Part shown: positions 25,120 through 58,995 of the stretch, piece after piece
How the letters are laid out: each line of letters begins with the position of its first letter
How positions within the stretch are numbered: position 1 is the first letter of the stretch
The notes under the pieces: generated by a model
What the model saw: the letters and a program-made list of their open reading frames with translations, nothing else
Databases searched by the model: none
Told to the model about the DNA's origin: nothing
Virus record (IMG/VR): IMGVR_UViG_3300037067_018912
Coordinates: 224,001 to 288,000 of that record
Strand: one strand, 5' to 3'
Source of the DNA: a virus
Lineage: Duplodnaviria > Caudoviricetes
DNA length: 64,000 nucleotides
Program-made: the position numbers and the translations under genes

Positions 25120-25188
25120 ATGAGAAATTTAGTTCATATCCAGCCCCAACATCAACCACCGCAAGTGGAACGGGGTTACTATGTCTAA
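25120..25188 (+). CDS. Attenuator leader peptide 1 (His/Gln/Pro), MRNLVHIQPQHQPPQVERGYYV
   Basis: 22-aa ORF between promoter and terminator; 9 of 10 consecutive codons are His/Gln/Pro. Confidence 0.85.
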   Translation: MRNLVHIQPQHQPPQVERGYYV

Positions 25189-25221
25189 ATTTTCGTAAAA
25201 AAATTTTTAGTTAAACTAAGG

Positions 25222-25255
25222 AAACCCCGTTCGCAAGAGCGGGGTTTTTTTGTTT
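25222..25255 (+). terminator. Attenuator terminator 1
   Basis: AAACCCCGTTC-GCAA-GAGCGGGGTTT plus T run; 5' arm complementary to GAACGGGGTT at 25168-25177. Confidence 0.9.
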
Positions 25256-25410: not shown

Positions 25411-25435
25411 AATATCACGTAAAGACGTGATAAAT

Positions 25436-25522
25436 GAAAATATCGCCTAAAAAGGCGATAAATATAATTTATCGGCTAAAAAGGCTATAAATATAATTTA
25501 TCGGCTAAAATACCGATATTTT
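25436..25522. repeat. Tandem/inverted short repeats in tRNA spacer
   Basis: About 31-nt unit ctaaaaaggc(g/t)ataaatataatttatcgg repeated. Confidence 0.7.
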
Positions 25523-29295: not shown

Positions 29296-29326
29296 TTTGT
29301 TTGTATTGTAACATTTTTTACCTTTG
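29296..29326 (+). promoter_or_regulatory. Bacteroidota-type promoter of tRNA operon 2
   Basis: TTTG(29296-99)-N19-TACCTTTG(29319-26). Confidence 0.8.
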
Positions 29327-29372
29327 CCTCGTATTTAGACTTGAACGATTATAAACAACAAGAATTTTTAAA

Positions 29373-29465
29373 ATGAAAAAGATGCTCGACATATTAGTAG
29401 TCCTATCAGTGGCCGTCCTGTTGTGGGATGATGCTGCAGAGGAAAAACTACATGAAGTCGGGTAA
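29373..29465 (+). CDS. Attenuator leader peptide 2 (Leu/Val/Ala/Asp/Glu/Trp), MKKMLDILVVLSVAVLLWDDAAEEKLHEVG
   Basis: 30-aa ORF; 21 residues are L/V/A/D/E/W. Confidence 0.85.
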   Translation: MKKMLDILVVLSVAVLLWDDAAEEKLHEVG

Positions 29466-29500
29466 TATTGGATACTTATTACATCTCCTTTCCTAACACG

Positions 29501-29540
29501 AAAAGACCCGGCTTCAAAAAAGACCGGGTTTTTTTGTTTT
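29501..29540 (+). terminator. Attenuator terminator 2
   Basis: AAAAGACCCGG...CCGGGTTTTTTT; 5' arm ACCCGGCTTCA pairs with TGAAGTCGGGT (29453-63). Confidence 0.88.
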
Positions 29541-29551
29541 CGGGGAGATGA

Positions 29552-29564
29552 AGTTCTTTGACAT
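29552..29564 (+). promoter_or_regulatory. boxA-like antitermination element
   Basis: AGTTCTTTGACAT; 23 nt identical to 48794-48816. Confidence 0.65.
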
Positions 29565-29574
29565 GCTGGAATTT

Positions 29575-29649
29575 GGTGCGTTAGTTCAGATTGGTTAGAA
29601 TATCGGCCTGTCACGCCGAGGGTCATGGGTTCAAGTCCCATACGCACCG
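29575..29649 (+). tRNA. tRNA-Asp(GTC)
   Basis: TCGGC-CT-GTC-AC-GCCGA. Confidence 0.92.
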
Positions 29650-29713
29650 CAAAACGCTTATCGGAAGGTAGGCGAAGCAAGGTCGTTTGAATACGTAATA
29701 GAACGATCTTGAA

Positions 29714-29787
29714 AGTCCTGTAGTTTATACGGGTGTGAATGCCCCTGCGCACGGGGGTGGTTGCTGGTTCAAATCCAGTCAGGACTG
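29714..29787 (+). ncRNA. tRNA-like element with aberrant anticodon loop
   Basis: Acceptor AGTCCTG/CAGGACT, T arm GGTTCAAATCC, anticodon region CCCCT-GCGCAC-GGGGG. Confidence 0.65.
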
Positions 29788-29793
29788 CAAATC

Positions 29794-29868
29794 GTTTCGT
29801 CGGCCTCTTCGGAGAGGAACTGGCCTGTCACGTCAGTAAAATAGAGGGTTCGAATCCCTCCGGGACGG
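29794..29868 (+). tRNA. tRNA-Asp(GTC), atypical D arm
   Basis: CTGGC-CT-GTC-AC-GTCAG. Confidence 0.75.
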
Positions 29869-29997
29869 CAAAATATCAGAACAATGAAAGTATTGGTTCG
29901 AGTCCAAGGTGGGATAATTCAGATGGCGCAGTAATGCTAAAAGTATTCCTGAACATCCTACCGCAAGGTAAAACGGATGCCTTCTGATATTTTATAT

Positions 29998-30073
29998 GCT
30001 GCGTTCGGCAAGTCCGGTTCAAGCCACCAGACCTTCAATCTGGTCATCATGGGTTCAAATCCCATACGCAGTA
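29998..30073 (+). tRNA. tRNA-Glu(TTC), C33
   Basis: CCAGA-CC-TTC-AA-TCTGG. Confidence 0.82.
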
Positions 30074-30271
30074 CAATCCTCGAAAATCAGTGGTTATCAT
30101 TTGTCCGCTGAAGACAAACAGTAAAGCAAAAAAATCGGGGCATACCCCCGCATCAGAGAGTCACTGAAACTTTACAACCCTTCCAAGAGGGTGTCGTTTG
30201 TTGAAAGATGCATAGTTTCCTCATAATTAAGGAGGTATTGCATTCCAACTTGGTAGTGGACGGACAATCAT

Positions 30272-30343
30272 GCTCGGTTCTTCTAACGGTCAGGAATTCG
30301 GGTTTTCATCCCGGCAATGGGGGTTCGATTCCCCCACCGAGTA
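30272..30343 (+). tRNA. tRNA-Glu(TTC)
   Basis: TCGGG-TT-TTC-AT-CCCGG. Confidence 0.88.
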
Positions 30344-30347
30344 CTAA

Positions 30348-30412
30348 TAATGTTGGTTATATCATACATTAAGTGGTAAAATTAAGGTTAATGTTGGTTA
30401 TATCATACATTA
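30348..30412. repeat. 24-nt direct repeat in tRNA spacer
   Basis: taatgttggttatatcatacatta occurs twice. Confidence 0.8.
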
Positions 30413-30448
30413 TGGAGTGTTTTTGTTAAACATATTTTACATTATCAT

Positions 30449-30521
30449 GTTCGGTTCTTCTAACTGGCCAGGAAAATAGGTTCTCAGCCTAAGAATAAGG
30501 GTTCGACCCCCTTACCGAATA
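30449..30521 (+). tRNA. tRNA-Glu(CTC)
   Basis: TAGG-TT-CTC-AG-CCTA. Confidence 0.85.
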
Positions 30522-30527
30522 CTTGAA

Positions 30528-30605
30528 GTCCTTTTAGTTCAGTTGGTTCAGAATGCCGCTTTCACAGAGCGGAGGTCGTTGGTTCGAATCCAACAAAGGA
30601 CACCA
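30528..30605 (+). tRNA. tRNA-Val(CAC)
   Basis: CCGCT-TT-CAC-AG-AGCGG, CCA encoded. Confidence 0.92.
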
Positions 30606-30695
30606 AATCAAACAAAAGCCAGTAAATGGCATTTAGTGTCTTTTGTTTGAAATTGGCAACGAACGATATTTAGTGCCAAAATTGTGATAATTTTC

Positions 30696-30769
30696 GCTCC
30701 TTTAACTCAGTCCGGGAGAGTGTCTGCCTTACATGCAGAAAGTCGGGGGTTCAAACCCCTCAAGGAGCA
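30696..30769 (+). tRNA. tRNA-Val(TAC)
   Basis: TCTGC-CT-TAC-AT-GCAGA. Confidence 0.92.
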
Positions 30770-30822
30770 CAAAACTATAAATCGGCAGCAAACGGCATTT
30801 AGTGCCGATTTATAGTTTACAA

Positions 30823-30897
30823 GTCCCTTTAGTTCAGTTGGTTCAGAACATCACCTTGACAGGGTGGGGGTCGTTGGTTCGAATCCAACAGGGGACA
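30823..30897 (+). tRNA. tRNA-Val(GAC)
   Basis: TCACC-TT-GAC-AG-GGTGG. Confidence 0.92.
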
Positions 30898-30995
30898 CAT
30901 GGGTTTGCAGACTTGGACAACAAATATGTCGGCAATTGCCAATATATCTTCCAACAAGATATAATACGCTGATATTGGTCTGTGAACCTATACCT

Positions 30996-31079
30996 CTCAT
31001 TGTGGTGGAATTGGTAGACACGTGCGTTCGAGGGGCGCATGCACGAAAGTGTTTGCGGGTTCAACTCCCGCCGATGAGA
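30996..31079 (+). tRNA. tRNA-Leu(GAG)
   Basis: TGCGT-TC-GAG-GG-GCGCA, long V arm GCAC-GAAA-GTGT. Confidence 0.88.
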
Positions 31080-31087
31080 CAATAAAT

Positions 31088-31161
31088 GCGGACGTAGCCG
31101 AATTGGCATAGGCGTCAGTCTTAGGAACTGATTTTTGTGGGTTCAAGTCCCACCGTCCGTA
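31088..31161 (+). tRNA. tRNA-Leu(TAG), short variable loop
   Basis: TCAGT-CT-TAG-GA-ACTGA followed by only a short T-rich loop. Confidence 0.85.
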
Positions 31162-31303
31162 CAAAAGGTGCATGACAGCAATAAGCAGTTTGGACTGCAT
31201 CACCTGTGCCGAGTTATCCTTAAATGTGAAGGAGTAATACCTTCTGAGTCTTTACATGACACTGCTTTATGTGTATTGGTTGGATAACTAAAAAGGCACA
31301 CAT

Positions 31304-31377
31304 GCAGATGTAGCCGAACTGGTATAGGCAATCGTTTCAGGGGCGATAATCTGCGGGTTCGACTCCCGCCATCTGTA
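31304..31377 (+). tRNA. tRNA-Leu(CAG), short variable loop
   Basis: ATCGT-TT-CAG-GG-GCGAT. Confidence 0.85.
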
Positions 31378-31458
31378 CGACCTTATTTTGGGTAACGAAG
31401 CCAATAGTCCCAAACACTCAGGTAGAAAATAATGGTTTCTGCATAAGGACAACTATAT

Positions 31459-31532
31459 GGGGTCGTAGCATAACTGGCTAATGCACCTGCCTTGCAAGCA
31501 GGGGACTGAGGGTTCAAGTCCCTTCGATTCCA
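31459..31532 (+). tRNA. tRNA-Ala(TGC)
   Basis: CCTGC-CT-TGC-AA-GCAGG, G3.U70. Confidence 0.92.
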
Positions 31533-31601
31533 CGCTGTCGGGTTTTTCGCACTTTTAGATTTCCGTGAGGTCAATTGACTGAGAAAGAAAAAGTGCAATT
31601 T

Positions 31602-31676
31602 GGGTCATTAGTTTAGACGGCTAAAACACTTGGTTTGCACCCAGGAGATCACGAGTTCGAGGCTCGTATGTATCCA
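31602..31676 (+). tRNA. tRNA-Ala(TGC), bulged acceptor stem
   Basis: CTTGG-TT-TGC-AC-CCAGG. Confidence 0.75.
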
Positions 31677-31741
31677 CCTGACGGGACTGTTTAGGATTTT
31701 CATAGGACTCCCAATGCAGTGCGCATAGAAAATCCAATTCC

Positions 31742-31815
31742 GGGGTCGTAGTTCAAATGGATAGAGCACCTGCCTGGCAGGCAGGGGGTTGAGGGTTCAA
31801 GTCCCTTCGATTCCA
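31742..31815 (+). tRNA. tRNA-Ala(GGC)
   Basis: CCTGC-CT-GGC-AG-GCAGG. Confidence 0.92.
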
Positions 31816-31881
31816 CTGAGACAGACTGTTAGGATTTCATAGTACCTGCTGCGTGTGGGTAGAAGCGTAGAAATTCAAATT

Positions 31882-31955
31882 GGGGTATTGGTTCAGATGG
31901 CTACAACGTCTGCTCCGCAAGCAGAAGACCGGGGGTTCGAGTCCCCCATACTCCA
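31882..31955 (+). tRNA. tRNA-Ala(CGC), C33
   Basis: TCTGC-TC-CGC-AA-GCAGA. Confidence 0.85.
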
Positions 31956-31963
31956 CAACAAAT

Positions 31964-32042
31964 GTAGTAGCATCCATTGGTGAGGTAAGCGGTCTCCAAA
32001 ACCGTGCCGAAAGGTGTGTGGGTTCGAATCCTACCTACTGCG
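31964..32042 (+). tRNA. tRNA-Trp(CCA) with variable arm
   Basis: GCGGT-CT-CCA-AA-ACCGT then GCC-GAAA-GGT. Confidence 0.8.
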
Positions 32043-32358
32043 CAACATTAATTAAATAAGAAAGCGAGGCGTGTTTTCAAACTGCGAATCAAGAATAGAA
32101 ATAAGATTTGGTGGTGGCGATTCGTTCACTACAATTATTTCCACAGAAGATTATTCCGTGAATTCTATGTGCAAAGGAAAAGATTCACAGAACGACAGAT
32201 TAGGAAATACCATTTGTACCAAAAACTCGATGATCTGATTACCTTCCGATGGTGCAAATTGTATCACAGGTTGTTATTTTGGCTCGAAGAATAAATTCCT
32301 GTATTTATTGATAACAACATTTGCTTTTATGCGTATAATGTTATAATTTTGATTTATC

Positions 32359-33102
32359 ATGTACATCATTGCAAAAAAGAAAGACTATTACGACGGGGTC
32401 GCCGGAACGGTAGGAATTGACAAGACTATTGTCTATGACCGCCAAATCGTTGAACTCGAAATCGACAAGATGCCGAAACTCTTTGGAGTTAAAAAGGGTT
32501 TTTGGGGTCTTTCGTACAAGGAAACGCCATTCAGGAAACTATCGTACCACAGCCTGAAAAGGGAATGTAAAAATGTGTGCGATGAGCATGCGTTCTTTAT
32601 TATAGGGTTCTGCGGTAAGTTCTACATTGGTTGGAAATTGTATAAGGAAGTTCGGTTCGGATGGAATGGGGTGCACGACCGGATTACAACTACGATCACA
32701 TACGACATGGATTACATCAAAACAATCCTTGAACCAAAAAGTTGGCATGGCAATCTTGCAGATAGTATTGATTACATCAAATCATACAACCCCTTGCAGA
32801 TTTTCAGGGATTTGAAAACACCCGTGTTCGTTTTCGATAGCGATTATAACAGAACGTGGATCAGTAAGAACGTATATAACGACCATAGTCCGAAGTTCTT
32901 TGTCAATCCCCTTTTGAAGGATTACGAATTCCCCAAAGTTTTCGATGCTTTTCAAACATTCCAAGAGATACAAATGTTTATCAGTGGAGTATTGGGTACA
33001 GGTGAAAAAGACATGGTCGAGATCGCCGACAAATATAAGATAATGGAGCATGGGTTCGACTATAAATGGTCTTTCAGAAAAGAACCGGAGGCGAAGAAAT
33101 GA
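32359..33102 (+). CDS. Hypothetical phage protein
   Basis: 247-aa ORF, MYIIAKKKDYYDG...HGFDYKWSFRK. Confidence 0.8.
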   Translation: MYIIAKKKDYYDGVAGTVGIDKTIVYDRQIVELEIDKMPKLFGVKKGFWGLSYKETPFRKLSYHSLKRECKNVCDEHAFFIIGFCGKFYIGWKLYKEVRFGWNGVHDRITTTITYDMDYIKTILEPKSWHGNLADSIDYIKSYNPLQIFRDLKTPVFVFDSDYNRTWISKNVYNDHSPKFFVNPLLKDYEFPKVFDAFQTFQEIQMFISGVLGTGEKDMVEIADKYKIMEHGFDYKWSFRKEPEAKK

Positions 33103-33258
33103 ACGGGTTAAGCAGGGAGGAATTAAGAGAGGTGTTAAGCAAACCTCCCCATAAACCAAACACAGACACAATAATCTGTTCAGAAAAATTCGCAGAGGCA
33201 TTGAAAAAAGCATTGGATGATTACGAAAATAACCGGAAGTCTACAATAAAAAAGGATT

Positions 33259-33462
33259 ATGGAAGAAAGAAGATTTTTTGAAATACACAGATCAGATGCC
33301 ATCAAGGTGTTGCTTTCAAAGGAAAAGACCCCAAGCCTCCACACCAATCTCAGGTTGGCGGAACTGCTTGAGGAACGTTTCCCGAAGAAAGACAGGCATT
33401 ACATTGTCAAGGAAGATGATATTGAATTGAACGATAATGCGTTGACTTCATCAACTTTTTAA
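33259..33462 (+). CDS. Hypothetical protein
   Basis: 67-aa ORF in a tightly packed run. Confidence 0.55.
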   Translation: MEERRFFEIHRSDAIKVLLSKEKTPSLHTNLRLAELLEERFPKKDRHYIVKEDDIELNDNALTSSTF

Positions 33463-33672
33463 ATGGGTGCTTTCGATAACATCAAAGGTGATATCAAGGC
33501 TCAACTTGATAAAATTGATTATCAAGGCGATTTGAGTGATATTGGTAACGAAATCGGTATTGCAATCGGAAAATACGTCCGTGAGAAAGATGATGATTCG
33601 GGTTGGGATTTAACGGATTTCATCCACGGTGTGAAACACGGGATTTCTTTGGTAAACGGTACACATTCATGA
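33463..33672 (+). CDS. Hypothetical protein
   Basis: 69-aa ORF abutting the previous ORF. Confidence 0.6.
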   Translation: MGAFDNIKGDIKAQLDKIDYQGDLSDIGNEIGIAIGKYVREKDDDSGWDLTDFIHGVKHGISLVNGTHS

Positions 33673-33754
33673 AAAACGTTTATTTTTCATGAAAAACGTT
33701 TATCTTTCATGTGATTTTATGAAAAACATTTATTATTAACGTTCTTTAACATCA

Positions 33755-34117
33755 GGGGGTGCTTTGGCTTTGACAGCGTGAACGGGATATGACGCAAGCA
33801 AGTGGTAGTTGAATCGGACTACCTTAAAAAGGTTCAAAACAATAGAAGCAGAGGATATAATGTCCATTCCAACTTCCCTCACAAGGGGAAGAAGCGTTTT
33901 CGTTGAGAGTGCTGAACTCATCGCAGCGTAAGGAAGCAACAAACGGCAAAAAACTTCCCAAATCATTCAGGTCTTTTGAAATCTGGTTTTTGGAAGATAC
34001 AGGAAGTAAAATAAAAGAATTGAATCAGATATGTTGACTGTTCTGAAAAACAGTATAAACTTGTAGAAAACGCATTGATCGCATGTTTGGACCGGGGTTC
34101 GACTCCCCGCACCTCCA
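33755..34117 (+). ncRNA. ssrA: tmRNA
   Basis: 5' GGGGGTG...TTTGAC, 3' GGGGTTCGACTCCCCGCACCTCCA with G3.U70; internal tag ORF 33848-33931 ending ELIAA-stop. Confidence 0.93.
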
Positions 34118-34143
34118 CTTAAACAATTGTAAATTAATTATTT

Positions 34144-34578
34144 ATGAGTCTCGACATTAAAAAAATGATAAAACAAATGAGGGAATGGAGTCAGTCTGAT
34201 GAAGGCAGGGCATTTTTCGAACAGCGAAAAGTTGAGCATGAAATCAGATTACAACGTTTCAAAAGATTTGAAAAATACCTTGAGACTCACGACTTTGATG
34301 AATTGATGTATCGATTGATACTCGAACACGACGACGAGTATCGTGAAAAATGCCGAGAAAAGGGATTCGAGGACTATCCGAACAACAAATTGCAGTTCGT
34401 CTTCGACTATGTTGTATACAACACAGAAAGACTTGATCCGACACCCAATGAAATTATTTCAGACTTCCCGGAGGAAGCATATGAGTTCAAAGGGTATTAT
34501 TTCCAAATCATATTCGGGCAAGGGAGTTTCATCCGCATATTCAATAAAGAGGACAAAAAACTGCTATTGGCCGTTTAA
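34144..34578 (+). CDS. Hypothetical protein
   Basis: 144-aa ORF. Confidence 0.75.
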   Translation: MSLDIKKMIKQMREWSQSDEGRAFFEQRKVEHEIRLQRFKRFEKYLETHDFDELMYRLILEHDDEYREKCREKGFEDYPNNKLQFVFDYVVYNTERLDPTPNEIISDFPEEAYEFKGYYFQIIFGQGSFIRIFNKEDKKLLLAV

Positions 34579-34581
34579 TCC

Positions 34582-34668
34582 GGCTCTGTGATGAAATTGG
34601 TAGTACATGCTGGTCTTAAAAACCAGTGGTCCGCAAGGATCGTGTCGGTTCAACTCCGATCAGAGCCA
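34582..34668 (+). tRNA. tRNA-Leu(TAA)
   Basis: CTGGT-CT-TAA-AA-ACCAG, long V arm. Confidence 0.88.
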
Positions 34669-34683
34669 CAAAAACAAAATCAA

Positions 34684-34959
34684 ATGGAACTATCGTCTGA
34701 ATTAAAAAAAGTGGTTCAAATCGAAATCCGGAAGGACTGTCGTGAGGAAGCAATAAGAATCCTTGAACTCGCCGATGAAAAAGACCGGGAGGATTTCCTC
34801 AAGTACCACCGACAGGATTTGGGAAACCTCTGTTGTTCAGTTCTTGACTATGCAAAGAAAAAATTGGTTGAAGAGGGTAAGATAGAACAAAAAGAAGGTG
34901 ATTGTTTCGAAGACCCATATAAATGGTTGGAAGAAAATGGCGATAAGAAAGGGAAATAA
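34684..34959 (+). CDS. Hypothetical protein
   Basis: Start MELSSELKK after the tRNA. Confidence 0.65.
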   Translation: MELSSELKKVVQIEIRKDCREEAIRILELADEKDREDFLKYHRQDLGNLCCSVLDYAKKKLVEEGKIEQKEGDCFEDPYKWLEENGDKKGK

Positions 34960-35059
34960 TGATTGTGGTTGCGGTAAACCTGTCAGGAATTCTGATAAAA
35001 AGAACGGCAAAGGAAAACCTCCGGTGAAAAAGACTGTGACTAAAAGAAAATAAGCATAT

Positions 35060-35133
35060 GCCCATGTGATGGAACTGGTATACGTGTTCGTCTCAAAAGC
35101 GAAATTTTGTGGGTTCGAATCCCACCTTGGGCA
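35060..35133 (+). tRNA. tRNA-Leu(CAA), short variable loop
   Basis: TTCGT-CT-CAA-AA-GCGAA. Confidence 0.85.
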
Positions 35134-35398
35134 CAATTTGAAAACTTTCTCGTTATTGTAACGAATTACAATTTCCATCGTATTATCTTTGTATATGGCC
35201 ATTATGATGGAAAAGGACAAGAAGGACTACAAATTCGAATATTACAAGCCTCCAAAGAACGAATTGACTTGGAGGGAAGCCTTGTTGATATACGGAATTA
35301 TCATTGGCGGGAATGTTCTTATTATTATCATAATCATATTATCAGTAAAAAAATGGTGATTTCATTCTGTTCAGCGTATTTATGACAAACGGTTCACC

Positions 35399-35659
35399 AT
35401 GAAAAAGATTACCGATATCATTAATGAAGAACTTGTCAAGTTGAATGAACTTGCAGGAGAAAAATATTATCAATGGACGGATAAATCCGGAAGGGGCGAA
35501 AAACCACTAAAACTCGCCAAATCAAATATTGCAAAAACCTGGGATTTGGACGAAGAAGATTGGTTTGGCAAGACATTGGGTGAATTTCTTGAGGAAAGTT
35601 ACATCGGTGATGTTTGGGAGACCCGAACTGAAAAACTTGAATGCATTGGAATATATTAA
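35399..35659 (+). CDS. Hypothetical protein, IINEE N-terminal family
   Basis: MKKITDIINEELVKLNE; GTATTTAT upstream. Confidence 0.75.
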   Translation: MKKITDIINEELVKLNELAGEKYYQWTDKSGRGEKPLKLAKSNIAKTWDLDEEDWFGKTLGEFLEESYIGDVWETRTEKLECIGIY

Positions 35660-35730
35660 TCACATAAACACAACAAAATGAAGAAAATTACTGATGCCTT
35701 GTAGGTTGCTCACATGCTGCCACAAGGAAA

Positions 35731-36024
35731 ATGTACAAAAATTTAGTTAAATCGACCACCAATCGTGGTGAGTTTAATCGTGCTTATAAAGCATATCTTG
35801 AATCAACAAAAGCAGAAATTCATTGCTCCCGCTGCCCATATCATCGTAATGAAAACGATGACAGAAAATATTACGGCGGATATCGCAGGATGAACGGTCA
35901 TTTATCAATAAGTTTCCCTAATTGGAAACTCGTTTCGAAAAACCGCAAGCAATGGATGAAAAAACCAATGAAAATTATTACAGAGGTCAAACACGACCGT
36001 GAATACACTGAAATTAAATTTTAG
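35731..36024 (+). CDS. Small basic hypothetical protein
   Basis: 97 aa, CSRCPYH, NWKLVSKNRKQW. Confidence 0.65.
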   Translation: MYKNLVKSTTNRGEFNRAYKAYLESTKAEIHCSRCPYHRNENDDRKYYGGYRRMNGHLSISFPNWKLVSKNRKQWMKKPMKIITEVKHDREYTEIKF

Positions 36025-36038
36025 TGTATTCCTTTTAT

Positions 36039-36111
36039 GCCGCTATCGCTCCAAAGGTTAGGACGATTCTCTCATAAGGAATAGATCATGGTTCGACTCC
36101 ATGTAGCGGTA
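36039..36111 (+). tRNA. tRNA-Met/Ile2(CAT)
   Basis: ATTCT-CT-CAT-AA-GGAAT. Confidence 0.8.
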
Positions 36112-36114
36112 CAA

Positions 36115-40619: not shown

Positions 40620-40712
40620 ATGTTTGCATTCGGAACATATTATTACACCAAGAAATCTTATAAAAAGCAATTTATAGGAATCGGGAATAATATGTCCACA
40701 TGCGAAAGATAA
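40620..40712 (+). CDS. Attenuator leader peptide 3 (Tyr/Lys), MFAFGTYYYTKKSYKKQFIGIGNNMSTCER
   Basis: 30-aa ORF; 8 of 10 consecutive codons are Tyr/Lys. Confidence 0.85.
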   Translation: MFAFGTYYYTKKSYKKQFIGIGNNMSTCER

Positions 40713-40737
40713 GCAATGATCTTTGCATTATGCACTG

Positions 40738-40772
40738 AAAACCCGGTTCGAAAGACCGGGTTTTTTTGTTTT
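40738..40772 (+). terminator. Attenuator terminator 3
   Basis: AAAACCCGGTT-CGAAA-GACCGGGTTTT; CCCGGTTC pairs with GAATCGGG (40678-85). Confidence 0.88.
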
Positions 40773-41388: not shown

Positions 41389-41502
41389 GGGAGTGTGGTC
41401 GAGCGGTAGACGCAGGCTGAATTGGTACACTGTTTGGGTTTACAACCTTAACAAACAGAGGAAGCCTGATAAGTACGCAGGTTCGAATCCTGCCACCCTC
41501 CA
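41389..41502 (+). ncRNA. tRNA-like RNA with a structured insertion of about 45 nt in place of the anticodon loop
   Basis: D arm GGTCGAGCGGTAGAC, T arm GCAGGTTCGAATCCTGC, CAGGCT...AGCCTG enclosing CTGTTTG...CAAACAG. Confidence 0.7.
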
Positions 41503-48436: not shown

Positions 48437-48562
48437 ATGAAAACTTTAGCCACATATAGGCCAACGTCCGGATCGACAGAAAGTCGCAACGGGAATGCTA
48501 TATCCTGCTCATTTATTAATGACGGCAGAGGCATATACGGCATCGGGTTATTGTTTTCGTGA
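48437..48562 (+). CDS. Attenuator leader peptide 4 (Thr/Ser/Arg/Asn/Gly/Ile/Cys/Phe), MKTLATYRPTSGSTESRNGNAISCSFINDGRGIYGIGLLFS
   Basis: 41-aa ORF; 29 residues are T/S/R/N/G/I/C/F. Confidence 0.85.
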   Translation: MKTLATYRPTSGSTESRNGNAISCSFINDGRGIYGIGLLFS

Positions 48563-48589
48563 GAAAAAAAGGACAGTTAAAACTTAACG

Positions 48590-48624
48590 AAACCCGGTGT
48601 CAAAAGCACCGGGTTTTTTGTTTT
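48590..48624 (+). terminator. Attenuator terminator 4
   Basis: AAACCCGGTGT-CAAAA-GCACCGGGTTT plus T run; 5' arm pairs with GGCATCGGGTT (48539-49). Confidence 0.9.
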
Positions 48625-50635: not shown

Positions 50636-50715
50636 TCACGAATAACTCAGCGGTTAGAGTGCCTCGGCGGGCTTCGGCTACGAGGGAGTCGGGGGTTCAA
50701 ATCCCTCTTCGTGTA
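50636..50715 (+). ncRNA. tRNA-like RNA whose anticodon loop is replaced by a UUCG hairpin
   Basis: Canonical D and T arms; CCTCG-gcgggcttcggcta-CGAGG. Confidence 0.75.
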
Positions 50716-51604: not shown

Positions 51605-51635
51605 CAATCATGTAAAATAATAAAGGGACATATTG

Positions 51636-52544
51636 ATGATCAAGATTTTCAAAACTTTCGGCGGGTGCGAAAGCGCAACCAAATTGGAAAAGGGATGTTG
51701 GATAGATGTGATTCAACCTACACAAGACGAGATTGAAGAAATAATAAACGGTTTTAACCTGCCCCCCGATAGTATACAAGACATTCTTGACGCCGATGAA
51801 ATGCCCCGTCTTGAAATCGACGACACTTACACCTTGATCATCATGCGTATTCCGGTGGAGAATTCACAAAACGGAATACCTTATTACACAATACCTCTTG
51901 GAATTTTTGTGACGGAAGATTTCACAATCACGATTTGTAATCAGGACAATGAAATCATTCAACCGAAACAATTGAGTAGCACGGCGGACACATACAATTT
52001 TATTTTGAAATTTTTTGTCAGATCAGCGAGTGTTTTTTTGAAATACCTTAAACAAATCAATCAACAGACAAGTCAAATCGAAAAGGATTTGGAAGAATCA
52101 ATTAAGAACAGTGAATTGAAAAAACTGTTGAAGATGGAAAAATGCCTTGTGTACTTCATTACTGCAATAAAATCGAATGAAATCGTCCTTCACCGTTTAA
52201 AAAACTCGAAAAGGATCACGGGTGAAATCAATGAAGACCTTTATGAGGACGCATTGATTGAAAACAGGCAGGCACTTGAAATGGCGCAGATATATTCAGA
52301 CATCTTGAGCGGGATGATGGACGCATTTGCCTCGATCATTTCGAACAACCTAAATGTGATAATGAAGAAATTGACGCTCATTTCAATAATACTCATGATC
52401 CCGACCCTTATCGCAAGTATATTCGGAATGAACATTCCGAATTTCATGGAAGGTTCAAATTGGGCGTTGCCTTCAATAATAATATTATCCCTATCACTGT
52501 CTTTGATCAGTGTGAAACTGATGAGAAACAAGCAGTGGTTTTAA
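51636..52544 (+). CDS. corA: CorA-family Mg2+ transporter
   Basis: ISNNLNVIMKKLT...PTLIASIFGMN signature. Confidence 0.92.
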   Translation: MIKIFKTFGGCESATKLEKGCWIDVIQPTQDEIEEIINGFNLPPDSIQDILDADEMPRLEIDDTYTLIIMRIPVENSQNGIPYYTIPLGIFVTEDFTITICNQDNEIIQPKQLSSTADTYNFILKFFVRSASVFLKYLKQINQQTSQIEKDLEESIKNSELKKLLKMEKCLVYFITAIKSNEIVLHRLKNSKRITGEINEDLYEDALIENRQALEMAQIYSDILSGMMDAFASIISNNLNVIMKKLTLISIILMIPTLIASIFGMNIPNFMEGSNWALPSIIILSLSLSLISVKLMRNKQWF

Positions 52545-58906: not shown

Positions 58907-58979
58907 GGTTCTGTAACTTAATCGGCTAAAGTAGCAGTCTCTAAAACTGTGTTTGCGGGTTCGAACCCCGCCAGGATCA
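58907..58979 (+). tRNA. Amber suppressor tRNA (CTA anticodon)
   Basis: Acceptor GGTTCTG/CAGGATC, GCAGT-CT-CTA-AA-ACTGT, T arm GCGGGTTCGAACCCCGC. Confidence 0.88.
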
Positions 58980-58995
58980 CCTATATATTTTTACA

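Follow-up and report, generated by a model that had tools for sequence, protein, structure and literature searches.

How is a large array of transfer RNA (tRNA) genes in a phage switched on, and what does the short open reading frame (ORF) in front of it read? The question is raised by a stretch of 64,000 nucleotides (nt), here called the window, which comprises bases 224001 to 288000 of the 357,275-bp virus record IMGVR_UViG_3300037067_018912; coordinates are window positions unless genome positions are indicated. Between 29319 and 29564, immediately upstream of 16 tRNA genes, the window combines a promoter-like site, a 30-codon leader ORF, alternative antiterminator and terminator structures, and a boxA-like element. 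On the basis of these sequences and their homologs, we propose that this region is very probably a ribosome-mediated transcription attenuator that controls a tRNA operon for Asp, Glu, Val, Leu, Ala, and Trp.

The leader ORF and its predicted RNA switch

The leader ORF (29373 to 29465, on the plus strand like all the features of the switches and tRNA operons described here) begins in an A-rich context without a Shine-Dalgarno (SD) sequence. It is preceded by a site resembling Bacteroidota primary-sigma promoters (-33 TTTG at 29296 to 29299 and -7 TAnnTTTG at 29319 to 29326), with a predicted start at about 29331, and by a GTATTTA motif (29331 to 29337). This motif is a candidate phage promoter element, being enriched 20 to 30 nt upstream of phage genes (29 ORFs in that bin versus 0.7 expected). 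The control codons, approximately 4 to 24, specify L, D, V, A, W, E, and M: Leu is encoded by CTC, TTA, CTA (twice), CTG, and TTG; Val by GTA, GTC (three times), and GTG; Ala by GCC, GCT, and GCA; Asp by GAC and GAT (twice); Glu by GAG and GAA (twice); and Trp by TGG, with an internal ATG as codon 4. Reading of the ORF and tRNA detection with ARAGORN and Rfam bore out these codons, the absence of GCG, and the downstream anticodons as listed in the original prediction; its remark that every synonym is used holds for most codons but not literally, as CTT and GTT are missing along with GCG. Altogether, D, E, V, L, A, and W account for 21 of 29 leader codons, versus 9.7 expected from phage codon usage (P = 2e-5), and the Thr/Cys/Asn/Ile/Ser/Phe/Gly/Arg block accounts for 3, versus 12.7 expected (P = 1e-4). 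Thus, as in known attenuators, a short ORF lying between promoter and terminator is enriched for the codons linked to its cargo. Neither this ORF nor any of six interspersed ORFs has a Pfam match.

The transcript of this region can adopt alternative folds of the kind seen in attenuators. A predicted 1:2 hairpin across the ORF (29383 to 29464; -28.3 kcal/mol) is a putative anti-antiterminator and candidate pause hairpin. Segment 2 (29453 to 29463), the 5' strand of the antiterminator, overlaps the stop codon, with the T of the stop as its last base, and pairs with segment 3 (29506 to 29516) in a helix of 11 bp with one G.U (-17.6 kcal/mol), just as had been claimed. Segment 3 is also the 5' arm of a predicted intrinsic terminator (29506 to 29535; -17.7 kcal/mol) that continues with segment 4 (29520 to 29529) and a U-tract; the antiterminator and the terminator are hence mutually exclusive, and the latter precedes the first cargo gene and is kept in homologs. 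The switch region folds better than 200 of 200 shuffles (z = -3.2), giving the long ORF-spanning hairpin and the terminator. When a ribosome is assumed to block pairing to 12 nt beyond its A site, the modeled 2:3 pairing stands at 0.96 while codons 2 to 23 are being read (A site up to E23), weakens at codon 24, and is 0 from L26; the run of cognate codons stops at codon 24. In this model, a stalled ribosome frees segment 2 and one that finishes the ORF covers it.

Two further elements flank the terminator. A pyrimidine tract (29482 to 29490) pairs with a purine tract downstream of it (29542 to 29550), forming a helix that is possible only in read-through RNA; in 47 homologs, which as relatives are not independent, this helix covaries: the proper duplexes are at -10.2 versus -8.0 kcal/mol for swapped ones, and none of 20000 swaps is as good. 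Between the terminator and the first tRNA is the boxA-like element (29553 to 29564), a candidate Nus antitermination site. Its 12-mer is nearly invariant across 41 aligned homologs, is found in identical form at rRNA-operon positions in bacteria (L136, L144, and L146), and stands ahead of untranslated RNA genes as Nus sites of the rrn type do.

From these features, together with the conservation, covariation, and statistics given below, we infer translation of the leader, switching, its trigger, Nus use, and the transcript length as follows. Host RNA polymerase would initiate at about 29331, and a ribosome would translate the leader. With ample charged tRNA, the ribosome would pass codon 24 and cover segment 2, and the terminator would form before the first tRNA. 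Slow decoding of any of the codon classes, the tRNA being cut, scarce, or uncharged, would make the ribosome linger in codons 4 to 24, whereupon segment 2 would pair with segment 3 and the polymerase would read through, take on Nus factors at boxA, and transcribe the tRNA array. The tRNAs so produced would shut the switch once more, establishing negative feedback on the tRNA pool. Read-through would probably reach the transfer-messenger RNA (tmRNA), Leu(TAA), Leu(CAA), and CAT tRNA genes, the distal genes likely having promoters of their own as well. The trigger may be tRNA loss to host nucleases, which is consistent with phage tRNA biology (PMC12409363, PMC10264068).

Homologous leaders, predicted sister switches, and other phage families

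We collected 48 distinct homologous leaders from eleven neighbor-protein loci and two pattern scans; part of the set was found by a leader-based pattern, and the central codons, which belonged to that pattern, are excluded from the evidence. Nearly all of these leaders lie directly upstream of an Asp-first array, and all 48 frames are open. A TAnnTTTG site is located no more than 90 nt from the leader ATG in 46 of 46 homologs; the leader start has an A at -3 in 83% and an SD-like motif in none. The cognate runs of the homologs stop at the modeled footprint edge (97 to 100% cognate codons at -12 to -5 and 47% at -4), and insertions or deletions within the control region preserve the reading frame. 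The TTG codon is kept in 43, CTY in 47, and the internal ATG in 45 of the 48 leaders, about once each and at shifting positions. Segments 2 and 3 pair at 82.9% in register versus 25 to 47% when slid against each other, with 29 changes on both sides versus 14.9 in shuffles, counts that relatedness inflates. Three lineages (L042, L114, and L117) have lost a single base beyond the control region and thereby changed frame, but the segment 2 core is intact in them, so that the constraint acts on the RNA.

The same genome contains three predicted sister attenuators, for Pro/His/Gln (25120 to 25246), Lys/Tyr (40620 to 40765), and Thr/Cys/Asn/Ile/Ser/Phe/Gly/Arg (48437 to 48620). Of the 75 terminator-like hairpins in the genome, only 4 come with a promoter, a short ORF, and an antiterminator, and a tRNA block follows each of the 4. 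Each of the four leaders is enriched for its own tRNA block and for no other (P = 2.5e-5, 2e-5, 0.02, and 2e-4), and jointly they span the 20 amino acids if Met is counted with the leader at 29373. The cognate runs of the sisters likewise end at the modeled footprint edge (P14, K16, and R31), and the leader at 48437 includes AGT and Arg codons whose matching tRNAs lie 4 to 9 kb downstream. Inside this fourth tRNA unit is a gene for a CorA-like Mg2+ transporter (51633 to 52544).

A scan that was blind to the leader, using the terminator and boxA pattern alone, recovered many phages with other tRNA groupings whose leaders have a matching composition, such as Tyr/Ser/Leu/Ala (L194), Leu/Arg/Cys (L209), and Pro/Ala/Thr/Gly/Val (L190); two single operons (L159 and L173) have a leader with nearly every amino acid, and two arrays that lack a Val tRNA (L164 and L216) have no Val in the leader control region. 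Among 27 nonredundant family representatives picked by hand, control codons match the phage's own array in 74% of cases versus 42% after permutation, and 87% of the amino acids of the array are found in the leader versus 51%; none of 100000 permutations reaches either value. Segment 2/3 duplexes in these other families are at -12.5 kcal/mol for the proper partners versus -9.4 for swapped ones. A search of bacterial genomes for this architecture with one pattern gave 17 hits, none of them, for that one pattern, a convincing bacterial leader/tRNA system: two have a leader with tRNAs, and the others are rRNA-operon boxA elements or unrelated. We rejected these two, from an Anaerolinea bin (L135) and a Paceibacterota bin (L148, a 362,763-bp contig), as evidence on bacteria or the host, as they are probably mis-binned phage contigs; L148 agrees with phage L002 in length and in its leader.

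The probable level of sensing and extent of the unit

Whether the leader distinguishes isoacceptors, as originally proposed, receives a divided answer. In its favor, this leader uses 17 distinct codons over 19 cognate positions versus 13.3 expected (P = 0.006), and synonym diversity is raised in the four leaders of this genome jointly (P = 0.0007). Across the 27 families, codons fit the anticodons of their own operon under wobble rules in 292 of 341 cases versus 274.6 for swapped sets (P = 0.0003), a fit that comes mostly from Leu TTR versus CTN (38 versus 27.5) with smaller shares from Arg, Ile, Ser, and Thr. The pooled synonym diversity across families, however, is not raised (P = 0.2), and a match of one codon per anticodon fails in the 16 complete homologous operons (read to Trp), where no codon tracks its anticodon: CTG occurs in one of six operons carrying Leu(CAG); GTG occurs in 11 homologous operons, with Val(CAC) in 1; and GTC and GCC are common without Val(GAC) and Ala(GGC). 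These sequence comparisons support sensing that resolves below the amino acid, at the level of the decoding box (TTR versus CTN), but not one-to-one; the near-exact match seen here is partly due to this phage carrying nearly every anticodon.

The suggestion that the regulated unit extends about 6.5 kb to the CAT tRNA proved plausible, though not as the exclusive source of the distal tRNAs. The proximal array (29575 to 32043; ARAGORN and Rfam) consists of two Asp, three Glu, three Val, three Leu, and four Ala tRNAs and one Trp tRNA. It is followed by a 247-aa gene (phrog_4243) with small ORFs, all of no assigned function (32359 to 33672); a second boxA-like motif at 33741, upstream of the tmRNA (33755 to 34118; ARAGORN and Rfam); Leu(TAA) at 34582 and Leu(CAA) at 35060 (together 34582 to 35134), the phage's only readers of TTA and TTG; and a CAT tRNA (36039 to 36112), the likely 3' end of the unit. 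This CAT tRNA is a candidate elongator Met or Ile2 tRNA; the leader contains a conserved ATA as well as the ATG. The leader TTA, TTG, and ATG are read only by distal tRNAs in this phage. Between 29540 and 36112 all genes are on one strand, and there is no strong terminator, just one weak hairpin within the 247-aa gene; a convergent gene lies downstream of the CAT tRNA here, and a terminator-like hairpin directly 3' of it is found in five of six homologs. The order tmRNA, Leu(TAA), Leu(CAA), and CAT is kept in homologs whose locus is long enough. Exactly two further TAnnTTTG sites occur between the leader and the CAT tRNA, one just upstream of the 247-aa gene (32344 to 32351) and at the same place in five of six homologs, the other at 35184 to 35191 and not found at this position in homologs. 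Because of these two promoter-like sites, the distal part is most likely fed by read-through plus its own transcripts. We see an even chance that read-through extends to the CAT tRNA and consider it improbable that it is the sole source of the distal tRNAs.

What such a switch is for can be framed in several ways. The most far-reaching, to which we give somewhat less than an even chance, is that jumbo phages of Bacteroidota use it for codon-resolved surveillance of the host tRNA pool: a few leaders jointly spanning the genetic code would detect the loss of particular decoding classes, for example, after an anticodon-nuclease defense, and induce only the block of replacement tRNAs that is needed (here together with tmRNA). 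Uncharged tRNA or a general slowing of translation would likewise open the modeled switch. Several points weigh against the attenuator as such. In the attenuation model of Elf and Ehrenberg, one codon per class would give low sensitivity (PMC1183508); one homolog (L041) retains V, A, and E codons though its proximal array consists only of Asp and Trp; the homologs and families are only partly independent; and an equilibrium model of the ribosome-free nascent RNA prefers 2:3 (0.96 here and above 0.5 in 94% of homologs), whereas the full-length ribosome-free RNA prefers the opposite, 1:2 plus 3:4. A shallow response from single codon copies might suit wholesale tRNA loss better than fine tuning.

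In a less likely alternative, the same switch responds generally to how fast translation runs or to amino acid starvation, and codon identity below the amino acid is irrelevant. A stall anywhere in codons 2 to 24 opens the modeled switch, uncharged and missing tRNA both stall ribosomes, and the lack of codon-anticodon association in the 16 operons and of raised pooled synonym diversity are as this would predict. Yet separate leaders for each cargo would be superfluous to such a gauge, the codon boxes do track the operon anticodons across families, amino acid attenuators prefer one starvation-sensitive synonym (PMC1183508) where 17 codons are used here, and extra tRNA would presumably leave an amino acid shortage uncured. 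At the other extreme, the leader might hold one codon per isoacceptor and the distal tRNAs come from its 6.5-kb transcript alone. The presence of an exact codon for each of the five Leu and the three Val anticodons and the diversity of codons in this leader speak for this version, as do the lack of a strong terminator up to 36112, the boxA, the purely distal location of the TTA and TTG readers, the conservation of the internal ATG and TTG, and the distant AGT and Arg tRNAs of the leader at 48437. We nevertheless hold it to be unlikely in view of the promoter-like sites at 32344 and 35184, the lack of codon-anticodon association within the family, and the absence of GCG from the sole complete operon of the 16 that has Ala(CGC). 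Least of all do we expect the ORF to encode a stable membrane mini-protein, with terminator and tRNAs independent of it. Its core is hydrophobic (33 of 43 variants reach a hydropathy of 1.6 or more over their best 19 residues), but 31 of the 43 have D or E within this core, and the longest apolar run is 5 to 14 residues, usually 7 to 9, so that an uninterrupted apolar helix of about 17 to 20 residues is not conserved. The C-terminal frame differs in the three frameshifted homologs that keep segment 2, the similarly wired sister leaders are polar, and there is the lack of a Pfam match; a mini-protein as the main function is therefore very unlikely. In the surveillance reading, by contrast, the locus would be an inducible counterdefense made of RNA and a throw-away peptide.

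Genomic setting and relation to known systems

The record has direct terminal repeats and is rated complete; at 357 kb this is a jumbo phage, with a portal and a large terminase encoded in the window. Its DNA is present in landfill and groundwater sequencing runs, and a comparison of four DNA runs showed that another study, too, has the locus and that a diverged strain carries it. As the phage promoter-like sites fit the Bacteroidota primary-sigma consensus of -33 TTTG and -7 TAnnTTTG (PMC6847099), the host is probably a member of the Bacteroidota; a sigma-70 scan gave 73 sites versus 53 expected with a consensus ill-suited to a host of that type.

Of the tRNA and tmRNA genes that ARAGORN detected, 59 lie in the window and two in the rest of the genome. 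Several tRNAs depart from the usual pattern. Three have C33 instead of U, namely Glu(TTC) (29998 to 30074), Leu(GAG) (30996 to 31080), and Ala(CGC) (31882 to 31956), changes that could serve nuclease evasion. The two Asp tRNAs are separated by a tRNA-like element (29714 to 29788) that has conserved D and T arms and a noncanonical anticodon loop and recurs at the same site with differing loops in L006, L083, and L123; it is possibly a decoy or a degenerate Asp tRNA. Rfam tRNA-like matches at 41389 to 41501 and 50636 to 50715 are uncalled by ARAGORN and have enlarged or odd anticodon arms. In place of the Leu(GAG) of this phage, many relatives (arrays of L001 to L010) have Leu(AAG), whose anticodon is seldom seen in bacteria. 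Short imperfect repeats or palindromes in the tRNA spacers (30608 to 30810, 25431 to 25520, and 33672 to 33725) are alike between arrays, and the tmRNA tag is long, about 27 residues, and conserved in relatives.

A fifth tRNA locus (L231; genome positions 159493 to 160045, minus strand) combines an initiator-like CAT tRNA and a TCA tRNA with a promoter and boxA-like motifs; a leader and a terminator are absent from it, and a long tRNA-like structure, which has a T arm and which neither ARAGORN nor Rfam names, is repeated within it. Its opal-type TCA tRNA (genome 159671 to 159745, minus strand) has an amber-type counterpart with anticodon CTA in the window (58907 to 58981), which is shared with the relative G001. 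Among 172 long ORFs, 9 stop at TAG and 25 at TGA, and so there is no sign of stop-codon recoding. The genome further encodes an RtcB-family RNA ligase (genome 348880 to 349941) and, within a 1,510-aa frame, a nucleotidyltransferase domain of the CCA-adding/poly(A)-polymerase family (genome 103924 to 104310, minus strand), for which a role in tRNA repair and maturation is possible. A search for the T4-type RNA ligase family had no match anywhere, a result that is uninformative.

Attenuation of genes for the translation machinery has a precedent in the Escherichia coli pheST attenuator, a chromosomal system in which the pheM leader senses one amino acid and controls a synthetase; both it and the present switch would sense the supply of charged tRNA. 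T-box riboswitches, too, couple tRNA status to antitermination, and with codon-level specificity; the mode differs in that they bind tRNA directly, without translation. The T-box model of Rfam (stem I specifier loop and T-box bulge) has no match here, as the Rfam matches in the window are tRNA and tmRNA only, and we found no published case of T-boxes upstream of tRNA genes in a literature whose coverage was incomplete.

The closest architectural parallels are the enterobacterial leader attenuators (thrL and the ilvGMEDA leader; trpL, hisL, and leuL type), which share the short cognate ORF, the 1:2, 2:3, and 3:4 alternatives, the U-tract terminator, and control codons ending just upstream of segment 2 (PMC1183508). 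Unlike these, the present switch is viral, its cargo is tRNA genes and tmRNA instead of enzymes, it would sense six or seven amino acids through many synonyms, each present one to three times, four leaders divide the whole code, and a boxA follows the terminator. That boxA is the identical 12-mer of rrn operons and in both cases precedes a long untranslated cargo; here it belongs to a phage and comes after a putative leader-peptide attenuator, as a candidate for Nus binding. On the side of function, phage tRNAs counter tRNA-cutting defenses, as the T5 tRNAs do against PARIS AriB (PMC12409363), and changes in their anticodon loops have been described (PMC10264068). Large sets plausibly replace depleted host tRNAs, as may be the case here, with three tRNAs bearing C33. 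In both papers the resupply of tRNA is shown or proposed, and we saw in neither a sensor that switches it on, attenuation and leaders going unmentioned in PMC10264068. A survey of the literature, incomplete in its coverage, turned up no report of tRNA genes controlled by leader-peptide attenuation. The type of switch is classical, and its application to tRNA genes, in phages whose leaders split the code, appears to be new.

Such a switch would bring viruses and genes for tRNA within the range of trp-type attenuation and would account for the sorting of these arrays by amino acid. It also bears on why phages carry tRNAs, whether to compensate for codon bias or to replace tRNAs that the host has destroyed, since the switch makes replacement testable. 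Such leaders may serve as small reporters by which tRNA loss can be followed in vivo, and tiny ORFs ahead of phage tRNA arrays should be annotated as likely regulators. Above all, the leaders would reveal which classes of tRNA each phage monitors.

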